From: an uncultured bacterium
GTDB lineage: Bacteria; Hydrogenedentota; Hydrogenedentia; Hydrogenedentales; JAEUWI01
Length of the DNA stretch: 13,220 nucleotides
Direction: 5' to 3'
Assembly (NCBI GenBank): GCA_963977445.1
Contig: CAXBPH010000198.1
Location: forward strand, 1 to 13,220
Positions 1 to 12,000 of the stretch are shown here, piece after piece. The position numbers are program-made. Each line of letters starts with the position of its first letter. The stretch's first letter is position 1.

Positions 1-3000
1 CGGCGCGTGGGTAGCGATGGCGGACACCGAAGGCCGCTTCGCGGACCTGGACCAGCTACCGATTCTACACACGACCGACGGCACGCACTTTCGGGTCTAT
101 GGCATCACCGACTGGCGTACGGACAACGAATGGGTCTACGGCGGGGATATCACGCTCTGGGAGAGCGCAGACGGTGGCAAGACCTGGAGCGAAGGAAGGA
201 TTTTGGCCACGGCTTTCAGGAGTTGAATAAGGTCATGGACTACGCCGGGGACGGCCCCCTCTTCATTGCCGGCGAACCCACGGGCGCGTGGCCGGAAGGC
301 TGGGAAAAGACCGACTTCACCCACTACGACAATCCGTCCCGCCGGGATAAGAAGCTGTATGCCTTCGATATCGATGGCGGGCTCGTTGGCGGTTGAAGGC
401 TGTGTAGCCGACCTTCGGTTGTGGGTTGTCGTCAAGGTCGTGGGGCGAATTGCGTCCCAATGCTGCTGGGACGGTGGGGGCAGGGCGTTGCGCCTGGGTG
501 AATAAACTGGCATTTAAAATAAGGATCTTGGACATTCCTGTCCGAGGCAAGGAGGGCCTGCGTCTTGAAGTTCGCTTGTCGTTTTTAGTGGCCATTGCGT
601 TTCCAGTTTATGTCTTTTCGCCCACCGCGCTTGACGCAGATTTTTGGTGGCGTTTGCAGTTTTCGTGTGCTTTGCCTCGGACAGGAATGTCCAAGATCCT
701 GTTGTTGGTTGCTCCCGGCCGGGCGTGTGGGTATGATGCGGGACGAAGGAGAACTATCATGTCTATGGGAATTTTGGGGTGTTCGTATTTAAGGTTGATG
801 GCGGCGATGGTCCTGTTGCTATCGGGCTCGCTTTTTGGGGCGGTGGCGGAGCCCATCGACGTTGGGAGTCGTCTGGAGCTCTTTGTTGACGATTACCTTA
901 TTGAAGGTATGGACAATGTGGCGTTGAAGCTCCACGAGCCCGTGCTGGCCGCGGCACCAACGGGGGATGTGGATGAATTGGAGTATGGGACGATCCTTAA
1001 AGATGGGGACGTCTATCGGCTTTACACCCGTGCGCGACACAACTCCCGGCTGGATGGCGATGAGGGAGAGTATACGCGCTATTTTGAGAGCACCGACGGG
1101 CGCGATTGGGTGGCGCCCGATCTGGGCTTGTTTACGGTGGAGGGGACGGATTGGAAGAACGTGATTCTCCATGAGCCTCCCTTGTGCCATAATTTCTCAC
1201 CCATGATCGATGCCCGACCGGGCGTGCCTGCCGAGGAACGTTTTAAGGCCCTGGGCGGTACGGGGAGCTTGGGGGGCGTGGGCTTGGTGGCTTTTGTTTC
1301 AGGGGATGGGATTCATTGGCGTAAGCTGGCACCCGAGCCCGTGATCCCGCCGACGGTGCCGTGGGAAAACGTCCACCTCTTTGACTCCCAGAATGTCGCG
1401 TTCTGGTCGGAATCGGAGGGGCGCTATGTGTGCTATTTCAGAAGCTACGACGGCCTGCGGAAGATAGCGCGGATTGAGTCGGAGGACTTCATCCATTGGA
1501 CGAACCCGAAAGAGTTGATGGTCAATTCAGAAGGGGAGCATCTTTATCCCTCCCAGACCCATCCTTATTTCCGTGCGCCCCATATTTACATCGCCATGCC
1601 GACGCGTTTCTATCCGGACCGGGGCGAATCGACGGATATCCTCTTCATGTCGACCCGGGGCGATGCCCTCTACAAGCGTCCCTTTCATGAGGCCTTCATT
1701 CGCCCTGGATTGGACCCGGCGCGGTGGGGCAACCGGTCGAATTATGCCGTGTTGAATACCGTACCCACGGGGCCTGCGGAGATGTCTATCTACACCACGC
1801 CCATGCGCCGCTTCACCTTGCGCACGGATGGATTTGTGTCGGTGCATGCGGGCGCAACGATGGGGGAGATGGTGACGAAGCCGCTGACGTTTTCCGGCAA
1901 GGAACTGGTGGTGAATTGCGCTACCAGTGGTGGCGGCAGTCTGGGTGTGGAGATTCAAGATGAAACGGGCACCGCGGTGGCTGGCTTTGGGCGAGATGAC
2001 AGCCTGCGCTTTGTGGGTGACGCCATCGAGACGGTGATAACCTGGACCGGCGGGAGCGACGTGTCCTCCTTGGCGGGTAAGGTAGTACGGCTGCGTTTTG
2101 AATTGGCCGACGCCGATCTCTACGCGATTCAGTTTCACGATTAGAGCTGCTATTGGTTAGTTCGCGCCGAAGAAATGGTGTTGGGCGGCGGGGTGGGCGG
2201 ACGAAAAATGAAGCGGATAGTCCGGGGACTATCCGCTTCGTGATTACTGGGCGTGTTGGCTCTTGTCGGGCCTATTATTTTTTCGCCTTGGTGGGGTTGG
2301 GGTGGGCGATGATGGCCTTGGCCTGTTCGAAGTCGAAGCCTACTTTGGAGCCGTCCTCCTTGGTGAACTGTTCGGTGTTCCAGGTGGGGCTTTCTTCGTT
2401 GTGGCACTTGCGACAGGTTTCTTCTTCAACCGCCATGAGGTGGGCGGTCCAGTCGATTTCGTCGGCAGTTTTCTTCTTGAACATGACATCCCGACCGTCG
2501 GCGAGGTGGTTGGAACCTGGACCATGGCAGGTCTCGCATTGGACGCTGTCTTCGGCCTTGATCTTTTTGGGGATGGATTCAGTGGCGAGGTCGTAGCCTG
2601 TCACGTGGCATTTCACGCATTCGGGTGCTTCGTGGGGAGGCACGGTAAGACCCCGTTCGGTGGCGATTTTTTTGGCCGCGTCACTTTGCAGGGCTTCGAA
2701 GGCGTGGGCGTGTTTCATATCTTTCCACACCGTCCATTGGGCCCCTTCGGGCTTTTTATTGTGACAGACCTTACATTGGTCCTGACCGATGTATTCGGCA
2801 TCCTGGGCAGGGGCAAAGCCGACGACCAAGGTCAATGTAAGGGTGGCGATGAGGTGCTTGTGTATCGTACGCATGGCATTCTCCTTCATGTTATCCGACG
2901 TCGCGACCATCCCGGTCACACACGAACCGTGGTTGGGCGAGTCGATTTTCGTTATTCATGGCAGACCCTGCAGCTGACCGAGTTGTTGGTAAGGTGCGGG

Positions 3001-9000: not shown

Positions 9001-12000
9001 GCAATGCGTGTCACAGTGAAGTTCGCCTCCACGGAAACCTTCGGGTTGGTGTAGACAGCTGTGTTATGTGTCACAACCCCAGTGCCACGGATGTAAATCG
9101 TCGTCCGGAAGATCAGGGAAATCCTGAAAGTATCAATTTCAAGGATATGATTCACCAGATCCACCGTGGCTCGGCGCTGGAAACTCCGTTTTCCGTGTAC
9201 GGATTCGGTAGCACGGAACACGACTTCACTGAGATTGAATTTCCCGGTGACCTGCGGAACTGTGAGATCTGCCACGTGGATGGGTCCTTTGATATACCCC
9301 TCTCCATGGACGCCCTCTCTACGGTTGTCGCCGATGGAGAGACGGTCCTGCTCGAAAAACTACCCGTGCGGGCCTCCTGCACCTCGTGTCACGACAGTCT
9401 GATTACGGAAGTGCACGCCGTCGTGAACAGTGATTCCGGTGCTCGTGTTGAATCCTGCGCAGTCTGTCACGACAGCAGTTCGGACTTCGCTATCATCGAC
9501 GTCCACAATATGGGGCCGTGATTTTTAGGCGACCTTACTGAAACGACAATCTGTAACAGTTGAACTAGCGACGGGGAAGGTGAGGTGTCACCTTCCCCTG
9601 ATTATGATGTAGATAAACAAACCGGGTAGGAGTCAGATTCGTGGTGAAAGAGGAACGTGGTTGGAGAGGTGCCTTGGGCCAACTTATCTGGCGCAATTGG
9701 CTGACACTTTTTGGCAGTAGCCTGACGACCGTGAGTGCTGGAGCGATCATCGTTTTTCTGGCCCTGGAATTTTCTGGTGTTCCCCTTTCGCCCTATATCG
9801 GTATCCTCAGCTATCTTCTGCTGCCAGCGGTGTTTATTCTCGGCTTATTGTTTATTCCGCTGGGCGCCTACCTGGATCGCCGCCATCGACGGCGGAACAA
9901 CATTACCGAAACGCCCCATATTAAACTCGATTTCAACAGCCCACGGATGCAGAAGCTGGCGGTAATCGTAGGGTTTCTGACCCTCTTCAACCTCATCATC
10001 GTTTCCATCGCCAGCTACGAAGGCGCGGTCTATATGGAGTCCGTCGCGTTCTGTGGTCAGACCTGTCACACCGTCATGGAGCCGGAGTTCATGGCCCACA
10101 TGGACTCACCCCACGCCATGGTGAAATGTGTGGACTGTCACATCGGACCCGGAATTCCGGCGCTGGTCCACGCGAAGCTGAATGGCCTGAATCAGGTTTA
10201 CGGCGTATTGACCGGGAGCTATGAACGGCCCATCCCGGCGCCGGTTCACAATCTGGCCGATGCCAATCTCACCTGCGGTGAATGCCATAACGGAAATAAA
10301 GACTTGGGTGATATTCTCAAGGTAACGACGGACTATGGTCTTGATGATGAGAATACGCCCCTTACCTCGGTGCTTCTCATGCACGTCGGTGGGGATGGGG
10401 ATGGTATTCACGGTTGGCATCTTGATCCTGACCGGGAAATTACGTATTACGCGCCCGACGACGACCGCAGTGTGGTCAGTTATGTGAACGTGAAAAATCC
10501 GGACGGTACTACGGTGGAATACTTTGCCGATGGCGCAGAGATTTCGCCAGCGACTTTGAAGCCCGACGCACTGCGCCGTATGGATTGCACCGACTGTCAC
10601 AATCGCGCTACCCACCAGTTTTCCATGCCTGGGCCCGCGCTGAATGCCGCCCTCGACGACGGACGACTCGACGTAGGGCTGCCTGCGATCAAACAGGCGG
10701 GACTGGATGCCCTGGAGCACGCGGTTGATTCGGAGGATGGGCTCCGTCTTATTTCGGATGAAATTACGGCGTTCTATACCGAAAATCATAGTGAGGTGGT
10801 CGCGGAAAAAGCAGCATCAGTTGACGCAGCCATCGCCACAATTCAGGCCATTTACCGTCGCAATATTTTTCCAAAAATGAGTATTGGCTGGGGTACTTAC
10901 CCAGACCACAATGGACACACGCAGTTCGACGGTTGCTTTCGTTGTCACGATGACGGCCACAGCAGTCGGGATGGTGAACATGTAATCAGCCAGGACTGCA
11001 CCATGTGCCACAATGTGGTGGCCTGGCAGGAAGAAAATCCCGATATCCTGGCTACGCTTGGCGTCCAATAGGGAAATACGCCATGGCTGTCTATTTAGCC
11101 GAGGCTGCACGATTTCTTACCGGGCGCAGCGATGATGAGAAAGGGGAGGTCATGAAGATTTCTGAGACCGTAATTTTAGTCGGTGCCACACTCTCGCTCA
11201 TAGGGTGTGTTACGCCACAGGCGCGGTATGAAACGATTCACGAGGCGGCAACAGAAGGGAAGGCCCGCGATGTAGCCGCTCTGGTTGATGGCGGGGTTTC
11301 CGTCAATGAGCGGGGTGAGTATGGCATGACGGCCCTGCATTGCGCCGCTGCGTGGGGTAGCGAAGACATTATGGGCTATCTGATTCGTCGTGGTGCGGAC
11401 ATCAACGCGGAGAATGATTGGGGGTTGACGCCCTTGCATATTGCTGCGGCCCGTTGCCATGACCAGGATGTGATTTTCCTGCTCGATAATGGGGCGGATG
11501 TAAACGCGCTTACCCATGCCCATTGGACAGCCCTTCACTATGCGGCTTCCCGTGGGAATCGCCTGGTCGCAGAATCGCTCATCCAGCGGGGCGCGGCGTT
11601 GGACGTGCAGACCCAGACGGGGGATACGGCCCTCCATCGCGCTGCCCGCAATGCCAGTGAGGATGTGGTCAAGGTATTGCTGGCGGCGGGAGCCGACGTG
11701 AAGATCCGTAACGAGGCGGGTGAAACACCGAAAGAAAGTGCGCTTCGGGAGGGGCAGACTGCCATTGCTTCTCTGTTTCCTGGTTGACGATTCTTGGTAT
11801 CCCTGTTTTCTGAGGGAAGATCCGCACTTGCATCCACAACCTTCGGCGGCGGAGACGCATTGCTTGAGGGTTATACCCCGGGCGGCGTTGATTTTAGAAT
11901 GGTGAGTTTAGAATGGCGATGGCGATGGTTGACGGCACGGTGCACCGTGGGCCAAGGGCGCGCCTCTATCAGTTCAGGTCGAGGGCCAACATGCGCCGGG

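Follow-up and report, generated by a model that had tools for sequence, protein, structure and literature searches.

Does the dense group of cytochrome genes on contig CAXBPH010000198.1 of an uncultured Hydrogenedentales bacterium encode a route that takes electrons through the outer membrane, and, if so, in which direction would they travel? The window analysed is the whole 13.2-kb contig, and its relevant features, with g28–g33 standing for g04028–g04033 of the preliminary description, are the following.

2210–2239, minus strand: terminator-like hairpin with a 13-bp stem and a T-rich tail (consensus scan)
2275–2919, minus strand: g28, 4 CxxCH; longest ORF 214 aa, first described as 199 aa
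2952–4043, minus strand: g29, 14 CxxCH; longest ORF 363 aa, first described as 357 aa
4043–5773, minus strand: g30, no haem motif; longest ORF 576 aa, first described as 575 aa
5770–6834, minus strand: g31, 8 CxxCH; longest ORF 354 aa, first described as 347 aa
6835–7439: 605-bp intergenic stretch separating the divergent genes g31 and g32 (ORF map)
7440–9521, plus strand: g32, 10 CxxCH; 693 aa
9641–11071, plus strand: g33, 5 CxxCH and one CxxxCH at residue 138; 476 aa
11005–11787, plus strand: ankyrin-repeat gene (Ank_2, 182 bits)

Of the 17 CxxCH-rich frames in the 7.1-Mb genome (at least 3 CxxCH, stop-to-stop, at least 80 aa), five sit on this contig, a haem-motif density far above chance. 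The ORF map returned the six gene positions as first described, the earlier haem-motif counts proved exact, and the lengths of 199, 357, 575 and 347 aa are those obtained from ATG codons inside the longest ORFs. The likely start of g28 is the ATG at 2874, which yields the 199-aa form with a type I signal peptide, and that of g29 is the ATG at 4025, with AAGGAG in front. At both the g31/g30 and the g30/g29 junction, the stop codon of one gene shares the sequence TGATG with the start codon of the next, indicating translational coupling. The 605-bp gap between g31 and g32 is presumed to be the promoter region of both transcription units; it contains no Rfam family and one weak sigma-70-like site (7138–7166) that does not rise above shuffled sequence. 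The terminator-like hairpin begins 36 bases past the g28 stop, at the end of the g31-g30-g29-g28 unit, and the total of such sites in the consensus scan of the region did not exceed that of shuffles. A look for RNA runs covering the region returned none.

The only gene of the minus-strand unit without haem motifs, g30, had been called a barrel from Atlas look-alikes alone, and searches of Pfam, NCBIfam and the PDB with its sequence gave no match. Structure prediction agrees with the earlier call: behind a signal peptide and some 70 aa of disordered, Ala/Glu/Pro-rich linker, the AlphaFold2 model (mean pLDDT 77.6, pTM 0.70) places 22 strands in residues 121–576, mostly at pLDDT >90, and solved outer-membrane barrels match it up to Z 19.3. 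All 48 sequences compared keep the C-terminal Phe F576 and also Y572, and g30 is thus predicted to be a 22-stranded outer-membrane beta-barrel. The best-matching type is the 22-strand barrel of TonB-dependent transporters (Z 18–19), while Shewanella MtrB (6r2q_B) aligns at Z 16.0; the MtrB barrel has 26 strands, against 22 in the g30 model. An Atlas look-alike in the preliminary description and the presence of AlgE among the Foldseek matches (E ~1e-9) would also suit an unrelated porin or an alginate-export-type polysaccharide exporter, lying among cytochrome genes by chance. Such an origin is extremely improbable, as the AlgE matches are to an 18-strand barrel at TM 0.32–0.35 by query and the better Z scores belong to 22-strand barrels, while the start and stop codons of g30 overlap both flanking cytochrome genes.

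Gene order in other genomes argues against a chance neighbour as well. The g29 alignment retrieved 80 loci, of which 73 had enough DNA to be judged; in 69 of these the barrel lies directly upstream of a g29-like gene (42/44 Hydrogenedentota-type loci and 27/29 from other phyla), and in three of the four exceptions a barrel frame is nonetheless present, overlooked by the strict rule. A g29 homologue follows g30-family barrels directly in three phyla. In Hydrogenedentota and Planctomycetota this partner cytochrome carries 13 or 14 haems; in records labelled Desulfuromonadota or Deferribacterota it has 6. Within the order, the barrel is present in 61 of 133 genomes, and the g31-g30-g29 triad is adjacent in all 20 loci fetched from among the 60 other barrel-carrying genomes; in one relative (L060), g31-g30-g29-g28-g33 all lie on one strand. 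A 6- or 8-haem g31-type lipoprotein gene precedes the barrel at 38 of 39 Hydrogenedentota-type loci and at none of 24 from other phyla, so that g31 is limited to the Hydrogenedentales version of the cluster.

The closest counterpart of the barrel and its 14-haem partner appears to lie in anammox bacteria. In Candidatus Kuenenia stuttgartiensis, a published pcc cluster of two genes pairs a porin-like protein with a cytochrome of about 340 aa and 14 haem motifs (Shi, Fredrickson and Zachara 2014; PMC4245776), under the locus names kuste4024/kuste4025 (bioRxiv 10.1101/855817). Loci of Kuenenia, Brocadia and Jettenia carry, in matching order, homologues of g29 (30–34% identity, 264–304 bits on the g29 profile) and of g30 (22–26% identity, 183–241 bits on the barrel profile), and these pairs fit that published cluster as described there. 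Judged by this description, not by locus tags, the Kuenenia loci compared here would be kuste4024/4025. In a quick tree, Hydrogenedentales and Brocadiaceae barrels form neighbouring clades, with a support of 87 for the joining branch, which is not strong. Compared with the Kuenenia cluster, Hydrogenedentales add a third gene, g31, ahead of the barrel, and the locus also links MtrC-type, ImcH-type and c554-type genes. The Geobacter-style set of the preliminary description stands as porin-cytochrome type, with the refinement that its barrel and 14-haem pair appear closest to the two-gene anammox cluster.

All 14 CxxCH motifs of g29, together with 14 further His residues, recur in each of 21 sequences, and its N-terminal part bears a weak resemblance to ActA of alternative complex III (6lod_A, E 2.5e-7); an AlphaFold2 model of g29 alone was poor (pLDDT 57). 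By sequence, g31 is assigned as an 8-haem lipoprotein cytochrome with weak likeness to MtrA: a Cys follows the h-region of the signal in 20 of 20 orthologues, which occur in 8-haem and 6-haem forms, and matches were obtained to PDB 6r2q_A (E 3.3e-5), the Mtr-complex chain of 333 aa, to TIGR03508 DmsE/MtrA (70 bits, cut-off 192) and to the GSU2203 family (79 bits); no protein passed the MtrA/DmsE cut-off. Like the Pcc system of Geobacter, as that is described, the triad has three parts, namely a porin-like barrel, a "periplasmic" multihaem cytochrome and a lipoprotein cytochrome, although the haem numbers (8 and 12 there, 14 and 8 or 6 here) and the gene order differ. In the model of the G. sulfurreducens complex OmbB-OmaB-OmcB (Liu et al. 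2014, after the summary in PMC4245776), it is by way of the barrel that the two cytochromes make contact. By analogy with this proposal, the favoured arrangement would have g29 reach into the barrel from the periplasm and g31 from outside; lipoprotein signals on both g31 and, in most of the order, g29 count against a firm assignment of membrane sides.

Across the divergent gap, g32 is, by its sequence, a true OmcA/MtrC decahaem cytochrome, as first described. It scores 419.5 bits on TIGR03507 (cut-off 209.3) over profile positions 8–672 of 672 and 184 bits on PF22113 in two stretches, and matches MtrF (PDB 3pmq) at E 3.7e-28. As in Shewanella MtrCAB (PDB 6R2Q) and OmcA/MtrF, this full-length family member has haems arranged 5+5 and a lipoprotein signal (lipobox FSGC, Cys 31). 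A disulfide in domain III is a feature of Shewanella OmcA/MtrC-type proteins, and is absent from g32, where no Cys lies between residues 358 and 520. The Geobacter Pcc system is not known to contain an OmcA/MtrC-family protein. Unlike Shewanella, the source genome yielded no MtrB-family barrel, and the profile search found even a marginal MtrB/PioB match in only 1 of 133 genomes; the "Shewanella-style MtrC" of the preliminary description thus holds for the family, in an order practically devoid of MtrB. The earlier count of the MtrC domain in at least 40 of 132 Hydrogenedentales was a valid lower bound, as 56 of 133 genomes now exceed the TIGR03507 cut-off. By comparison of the two genome tables by hand, 54 of these 56 also have the g30 barrel, on the same contig in 33, counts that overstate the support because the genomes of relatives are not independent. 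Seven of the 61 barrel-carrying genomes lack an OmcA/MtrC protein above cut-off, and g32 is therefore not obligatory.

The remaining two cytochromes could connect this conduit with the inner membrane. The architecture of g33 matches that published for ImcH of G. sulfurreducens (GSU3259; Levar et al. 2014), with three N-terminal hydrophobic segments (23–49, 53–71 and 106–124), a NapC/NirT-like region (PF03264, 24.2 bits, cut-off 24.1; TIGR03153 NrfH, 49.5 bits, below cut-off) and a first motif of CxxxCH type, "FCGxxCH", kept in 13 of 13 orthologues. It has six haem motifs in all, against seven in Geobacter ImcH; a 2018 survey, whose main text does not mention Hydrogenedentes, accepted homologues with 5 to 9 further CxxCH motifs (PMC6295460). 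We propose that g33 is an inner-membrane ImcH-type cytochrome and putative quinol oxidase. Behind it, the ankyrin-repeat product is probably a lipoprotein with its start near 11152 (signal end LIGC); a homologue occupies this position in all four same-genus loci and in none of the 16 others fetched, and it is possibly a genus-specific accessory.

The small tetrahaem protein g28 belongs to the same Pfam family as Nitrosomonas europaea cytochrome c554 (PF13435, 65.6 bits, cut-off 20.8), its closest solved relative (PDB 1bvb, E 4.3e-11), and signal ends of Ala-x-Ala type without a lipobox Cys in its orthologues are consistent with a periplasmic c554-like carrier. In Nitrosomonas, c554 partners a NapC/NirT-type membrane cytochrome and sends electrons towards the quinone pool. 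A similar pairing would be expected for g28, albeit in another pathway; its 55.7 bits fall far below the NCBIfam equivalog cut-off of 400. The likeness of g28 to c554 and of the g29 N-terminus to pentahaem ActA, both kinds being periplasmic electron carriers, might instead point to a redox module confined to the periplasm and acting on a soluble substrate (nitrogen or sulfur oxyanions, for example), with g30 serving only as a porin for substrate or product and no electrons crossing the outer membrane. The preliminary description had cautioned that multihaem clusters can serve other periplasmic functions, and the genome holds further multihaem clusters. We regard this as improbable: the cluster has no catalytic subunit, with no molybdopterin, sirohaem, copper or HAO-type family match in Pfam and NCBIfam; g30 bears no plug or substrate-channel family signature; the coupling of barrel and multihaem cytochrome recurs from Hydrogenedentota and Planctomycetota to Desulfuromonadota- and Deferribacterota-labelled records; and the family of g32 is known solely as cell-surface metal reductases.

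Homology, structure prediction and conserved gene order thus support the initial reading of the parts list as a porin-cytochrome conduit, and the six genes probably form one extracellular electron-transfer pathway from quinol to the cell surface. In this pathway, g33 would accept electrons from the quinol pool at the inner membrane, soluble g28 would ferry them through the periplasm, the g29/g30/g31 set, at least one of its cytochromes seated in the barrel, would conduct them over the outer membrane, and g32, at the surface, would donate them to outside acceptors that are insoluble or large, for example humic matter or the oxides of Fe(III) or Mn(IV). We infer the barrel-cytochrome complex, the placing of its cytochromes, the surface location of g32 and the outward flow. 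Machinery that would support the pathway is encoded in the source genome: a gene of ResB type for cytochrome c maturation, and secretin genes.

The conduit could also run inward: Fe(II), reduced humics, a cathode-like mineral or a partner cell would then donate the electrons, and these would end in the reduction of oxygen or nitrate or in the quinone pool. The direction of c554 in Nitrosomonas and the three haem-copper oxidase subunit I genes of the source genome make such metal oxidation possible, and the Mtr/Mto literature, as quoted in PMC4245776, ties two-gene conduits lacking a surface cytochrome to Fe(II) oxidation. We nevertheless consider it unlikely, since the survey of ImcH homologues describes them in Fe(III) reducers only and reads them as quinol oxidases (Zhong and Shi 2018, PMC6295460), and MtrC-type surface cytochromes are described as typical of reducers and usually absent from oxidiser clusters (PMC4245776).

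The single parts of the locus are of known kinds, and their combination is not described in the literature searched. Mineral respiration or iron oxidation, anticipated in the preliminary description, would be the physiological prediction. With a seemingly complete chain of haem proteins leading from the inner membrane through the barrel to the surface, this uncultured sugar-degrading Hydrogenedentales bacterium could probably breathe minerals.

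The six genes of the cluster form two divergent groups and are listed here with the haem-binding motifs of their products.

2275-2919, minus strand: g28, c554-type cytochrome, 4 CxxCH
2952-4043, minus strand: g29, multihaem cytochrome, 14 CxxCH
4043-5773, minus strand: g30, predicted outer-membrane beta-barrel, 0 CxxCH
5770-6834, minus strand: g31, predicted lipoprotein cytochrome, 8 CxxCH
7440-9521, plus strand: g32, OmcA/MtrC-family cytochrome, 10 CxxCH
9641-11071, plus strand: g33, ImcH-like cytochrome, 5 CxxCH and 1 CxxxCH at residue 138

These open reading frames stand where the preliminary description, which proposed a porin-cytochrome cluster for extracellular electron transfer at 2275-11071, had placed them, and an ORF list and motif count reproduced its haem-motif numbers; the shorter proteins it gave reflect internal ATG starts within the same frames. 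The window is one whole contig, C198 (13,220 bases), of a source genome (7.1 Mb in 464 contigs, rated 94% complete) that holds only 17 stop-to-stop frames (80 aa or longer) with at least 3 CxxCH, 5 of them on C198. At both the g31/g30 and the g30/g29 junctions the stop codon of one gene overlaps the start codon of the next as TGATG, AAGGAG stands ahead of the second ATG of g29, and a terminator scan places a 13-bp hairpin with a T tail 3' of g28. Site counts in the promoter and terminator scan were not above those of shuffles, and no Rfam family was found in the window. Among the sequencing runs listed as containing the region, none is of RNA, and one DNA run contains a small share (0.06). The gene directly 3' of g33 (11005-11787, plus strand, start likely near 11152) encodes a protein of ankyrin repeats whose signal looks like that of a lipoprotein (…LSLIGC); all 4 same-genus loci have a homologue in this position, and none of the 16 more distant loci does. 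The cluster is flanked by a 572-aa ORF with no family match (426-2144, plus strand) and by a DUF2089 helix-turn-helix protein whose C-terminal part is hydrophobic (11969-12829, minus strand), neither of which recurred beside the cluster in the other fetched loci.

The barrel g30 belongs to no Pfam or NCBIfam family and matches no solved sequence. A collection of 5.8 billion proteins yielded 82 homologues, 48 of which were aligned (alignment A1); those with names come from Hydrogenedentes and are called ‘hypothetical protein’ or, once, ‘TonB-dependent receptor’. The AlphaFold2 model (mean pLDDT 77.6, pTM 0.70) consists of a disordered N-terminal segment (residues 1-111) and 22 beta strands over residues 121-576, mostly at pLDDT >90. 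All 48 aligned sequences keep F576 and Y572, which fits the C-terminal signal expected of outer-membrane barrels. Foldseek returned at least 343 matches to the model at E <=0.001, and those listed (ushers, AlgE, Occ porins) are outer-membrane barrels throughout, while a second, independent aligner put 22-strand TonB-dependent transporter barrels and usher pores on top (Z 19.3 to 18.5) and MtrB of the Mtr complex at rank 21 (Z 16.0, rmsd 6.1 Å over 349 residues). At the level of a predicted structure, the strand number, the C-terminal residues and the matches to solved barrels thus uphold the earlier proposal that g30 is an outer-membrane beta-barrel. Because of these matches, the model is read as a large, plug-less barrel of transporter size, whose lumen, by analogy with known barrel structures, would be able to take in part of a cytochrome. 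Strand number and gene linkage speak against a function as alginate exporter, a reading that was rejected. Between signal peptide and barrel (window 5419-5620, minus strand; residues ~50-118) runs a disordered linker of ~70 residues at pLDDT <50, rich in Ala, Glu and Pro and replaced in orthologues by different sequence of like composition, which could serve as a periplasmic tether or docking arm.

Matches to g30 occur in 61 of the 133 genomes of the order Hydrogenedentales and in 41 of the 84 high-quality ones. In all 20 loci drawn from the 60 other matching genomes, for which long contigs were chosen, the g31-, g30- and g29-like genes are adjacent and co-directional. Genes like g28 (13/20), g33 (13/20) and g32 (12/20) also lie within the fetched stretch, in variable order and strand. 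One locus (L060) carries g31-g30-g29-g28-g33 on the same strand, and in two others (L048, L052) a g28-like gene immediately precedes a g33-like gene, arrangements that fit g28 as the partner of g33. With its 4 CxxCH, g28 belongs to the Cytochrome_C554 family (PF13435, 65.6 bits, cut-off 20.8) and resembles cytochrome c554 of Nitrosomonas (1bvb, E 4.3e-11); it is not the equivalog of the latter in NCBIfam (55.7 bits, cut-off 400). The signals of its orthologues end in Ala-x-Ala, so g28 should be soluble.

The barrel family extends beyond the order. Searched against 1.84 billion sequences, the A1 profile drew at least 552 representatives (at 50% identity) at E <=0.001, 382 at 1e-10 and 56 at 1e-30. 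Most of the 28 distant matches scanned have no Pfam family, a few giving weak Porin_4, OMP_b-brl or MtrB_PioB hints, and the 20 that were looked up bear ‘hypothetical protein’ names only, from Omnitrophota, Brocadiales, Planctomycetota and one deltaproteobacterium. Wherever examined, a g30-type barrel is accompanied by a 6- to 16-haem cytochrome, mostly with 13 or 14 haems; this holds for Hydrogenedentota, for Planctomycetota, both anammox and other, and for records that bear Desulfuromonadota and Deferribacterota labels. Two public gene calls (P0279, P0218) join the barrel to the g29-like cytochrome and look like read-through over a frameshift or overlap, not true fusions; a third (P0315) fuses a g30-type barrel to a ResB-like protein.

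A search with the g29 alignment, at one genome per species, gave 80 loci, 49 of Hydrogenedentota type and 31 others labelled Kuenenia, Brocadia, Jettenia, Wunengus, other Planctomycetota, Geopsychrobacteraceae and Deferribacteraceae. Under a strict adjacency rule, and among loci with enough DNA, the g29-like gene has an A1-profile barrel immediately upstream in 42 of 44 Hydrogenedentota-type and 27 of 29 other loci; in the exceptions L074, L100 and L136 the barrel is present in overlapping frames, and beside the g29-like gene of L118 no barrel was found. The barrel has a g31-like gene in front of it in 38 of 39 loci of Hydrogenedentota type and in 0 of 24 others; the minimal conserved unit is therefore the barrel with a g29-type cytochrome, to which g31 was added in the Hydrogenedentales lineage. 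In a quick tree of 42 barrels, those of Hydrogenedentales (21 rows) and of Brocadiaceae (14 rows) each form a strongly supported clade, and the branch joining the two has a support of 87, which is not strong. Three loci of non-anammox Planctomycetota have a frame of weak likeness to g32 (72-100 bits); in L133 and L136 this is a 10-haem frame of ~1000 aa behind the barrel-cytochrome pair and in L137 a cut-off 4-haem frame upstream of it. Loci labelled Geopsychrobacteraceae and Deferribacteraceae (L135, L138, L140) carry a weakly matching barrel (56-60 bits) followed by a 6-haem protein of ~155 aa that matches g29 residues 186-332, which looks like a reduced form of the pair. Loci with the Hydrogenedentota-type gene set and 44-48% identity in g29 (L065, L066, L068, L071, L078-L081, L084, L085, L089, L095) are titled ‘uncultured Nitrospiraceae/Nitrospirales’, ‘FCB group’ or ‘Bathyarchaeia’, and these taxon labels may be unreliable.

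Porin-cytochrome (pcc) clusters were defined by Shi, Fredrickson and Zachara (2014; PMC4245776), the available text of which describes for Kuenenia stuttgartiensis a two-gene cluster that pairs a porin-like protein with a ‘periplasmic’ cytochrome of 14 haem motifs, places that cytochrome in a range of 338-344 aa common to Anaeromyxobacter, and proposes that the cluster bridges the outer membrane with no separate cytochrome at the surface. An excerpt of an anammox electrode study gives the Kuenenia pcc genes as kuste4024 and kuste4025 (bioRxiv 10.1101/855817). In keeping with the definition as set out in the former text, the window has a modelled barrel, g30, beside g29 with its 14 CxxCH, the codons of the two overlapping, and both proteins resemble the products of neighbouring genes in Kuenenia, Brocadia and Jettenia records. 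The Kuenenia loci found here, a barrel and a 345-361 aa frame with 14 motifs, agree with the published cluster, and we infer that they are kuste4024/kuste4025. The g30 barrel family, ‘hypothetical protein’ in public records and now backed by sequence and a model, ties together the system of Hydrogenedentales and the porin-cytochrome pair of anammox bacteria.

Two cytochromes are candidates for the barrel lumen. In g29, Pfam finds nothing beyond general cytochrome c7/c3 models, and the N-terminal part has a weak match to pentahaem ActA from alternative complex III (6lod_A, E 2.5e-7). In 21 of 21 sequences, all 14 CxxCH and another 14 His are unchanged, which fits 14 bis-His haems. Modelled alone from 38 aligned sequences, g29 gave a poor AlphaFold2 structure (pLDDT 57.2, pTM 0.41), for which Foldseek found nothing at E <=0.001, the best weak rows being ActA of alternative complex III. 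An Ala-Cys lipobox is present in all 16 g29 orthologues outside the genus and absent from the window protein and its four same-genus relatives. In g31, a Cys directly behind the hydrophobic signal region, mostly as L-x-G-C, recurs in the window protein and 20 of 20 orthologues and marks it as a predicted lipoprotein; 8 of 21 sequences have 8 haems and 13 of 21 have 6, the latter without the insert that bears haems 5 and 6. The placement favoured here has g29 entering the barrel from the periplasmic side, because it is g29 that stays with the barrel across phyla, and g31, on the analogy of Geobacter OmcB, as the lipoprotein on the outer side. Under the reverse, less favoured placement, g31 would sit in the barrel and g29 outside, in line with the MtrA likeness that g31, not g29, shows: its sole notable solved relative is chain A of the Mtr complex (6r2q, E 3.3e-5), and it scores 70 bits against the DmsE/MtrA family (cut-off 192.2) and 79 bits against the GSU2203 family.

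At the presumed surface end, g32 passes the cut-off of the OmcA/MtrC family along the whole profile (TIGR03507, 419.5 bits, cut-off 209.3, profile 8-672 of 672), as the preliminary description had held in naming it a decahaem cytochrome of that family. PF22113 is matched in two stretches (184 bits), the haem motifs fall 5+5 into two pentahaem domains (215-354 and 521-673), and a lipobox, FSGC, places the lipoprotein Cys at 31. Its best solved relative is MtrF (3pmq, E 3.7e-28), and public records already call close relatives ‘OmcA/MtrC family decaheme c-type cytochrome [Candidatus Hydrogenedentes]’. Shewanella OmcA/MtrC-type proteins have a disulfide in domain III; residues 358-520 of g32 contain no Cys, so a disulfide of the Shewanella type is missing.

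The locus does not have the composition of MtrCAB. The barrel g30 matches neither PF11854 nor TIGR03509, and the source genome, with its single OmcA/MtrC gene, has no MtrB, the best match reaching 15 bits elsewhere; g31, with 8 haems, stays below the MtrA/DmsE cut-off, which no protein of the source genome exceeds. Across the order, the OmcA/MtrC cut-off is passed in 56 of 133 genomes, and MtrB/PioB is matched in one of 133, marginally, at 19.3 bits. Comparing the two genome tables by hand, barrel and MtrC are found together in 54 genomes (in 33 on a common contig), MtrC alone in 2, the barrel alone in 7, one of which has a partial MtrC of 181 bits, and neither in 70; related genomes are not independent, so these counts are descriptive and do not amount to a test. 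It is tempting to suggest, as a tentative reading for which the chances seem a little short of even, that in Hydrogenedentales a conduit with g30, founder of an unnamed outer-membrane barrel family, replaced MtrAB as the docking partner of an MtrC-type cytochrome. If this were so, MtrC-type reductases would not be bound to MtrAB, and mineral respiration would be possible in nearly half of an abundant glycan-degrading order.

The inner-membrane end of the route would be g33. Its hydrophobic segments (23-49, 53-71, 106-124) mark three predicted N-terminal transmembrane helices, followed by a NapC/NirT/NrfH-like region (PF03264, 24.2 bits, cut-off 24.1; NrfH, 49.5 bits over residues 114-218, below cut-off). 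CGQTCH stands at residue 138, 14 residues past the third helix, ahead of the 5 CxxCH, and 13 of 13 orthologues retain the motif FCGxxCH. At least 4,444 matches, named ‘NapC/NirT family cytochrome c’, come from Hydrogenedentes and Acidobacteria, and Atlas neighbours belong to clusters that combine NapC/NirT with cytochrome c7, measure about 450-494 aa and come from Acidobacteriota, Thermodesulfobacteriota and Verrucomicrobiota, a spread that fits the published one of ImcH as a matter of distribution, not of alignment. Relatives of g33 in the genomes behind L135, L140, L109 and L116 were weak NapC-like matches only (<=27 bits), which gave no tie to a named ImcH. According to the available text of Levar et al. 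(2014; PMC4251993), ImcH contains three presumed transmembrane helices and a NapC/NirT-like region, along with seven haem motifs, the first being CXXXCH, and that of Zhong and Shi (2018; PMC6295460) accepts homologues with 5 to 9 CX2CH. The likeness of g33 to ImcH is thus one of predicted architecture, which agrees, with the CxxCH number at the lower bound. The accessible main text of the latter paper makes no mention of Hydrogenedentes.

Arranged as the likeliest route, g33 would take electrons out of the quinol pool, g28 would carry them across the periplasm to an outer-membrane unit of g29, g30 and g31, and g32 would be the surface end point. The source genome also holds a ResB-type maturation gene, secretin genes and three haem-copper oxidase genes, the last making it probable that the organism respires oxygen; the conduit would be in use when oxygen is absent, or could run inward. 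ImcH homologues are, in the available text of PMC6295460, known only from Fe(III) reducers, which tilts the balance towards outward flow. A second multihaem group on C25 (about 9050-21031) comprises a 1035-aa 10-CxxCH protein of no family, a c554-like 4-haem protein and a 5-haem protein of weak ExtKL likeness, and may be another envelope electron pathway. Elsewhere in the genome are a QrcA/ActA-like pentahaem gene ~10 kb from a haem-copper oxidase gene (C60), an octahaem protein with a weak hydrazine-dehydrogenase/HAO-type match adjoining a 4-haem protein (C62), and an 8-haem protein fused to TPR repeats (C17).

Hydrogenedentota are widespread, uncultured degraders of complex carbohydrates. 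Each part of the cluster is of a known kind, and the available text of a 2024 survey lists 15 Hydrogenedentota MAGs as possible iron reducers from hits of FeGenie, an automatic classifier (PMC10809760). Literature searches found nothing pairing Hydrogenedent- with MtrC, nothing related for multiheme, and, for extracellular electron transfer, Cyc2 homologues only, in the accessible text of one paper; PMC12735889 contained nothing on extracellular electron transfer in Hydrogenedentota. What was not found in print is the composition, namely an anammox-type barrel and 14-haem pair with an extra lipoprotein cytochrome, an MtrC-type cytochrome without MtrAB, an ImcH-type and a c554-type cytochrome, and its conservation as one module in nearly half of the order. 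For the electron-conduit field, the sequences would offer a natural case of an MtrC-type cytochrome without MtrAB. If ~45% of Hydrogenedentales (61/133) bear a working conduit, the breakdown of polymers by these bacteria could be coupled to the reduction of Fe(III), Mn(IV) or humic substances.
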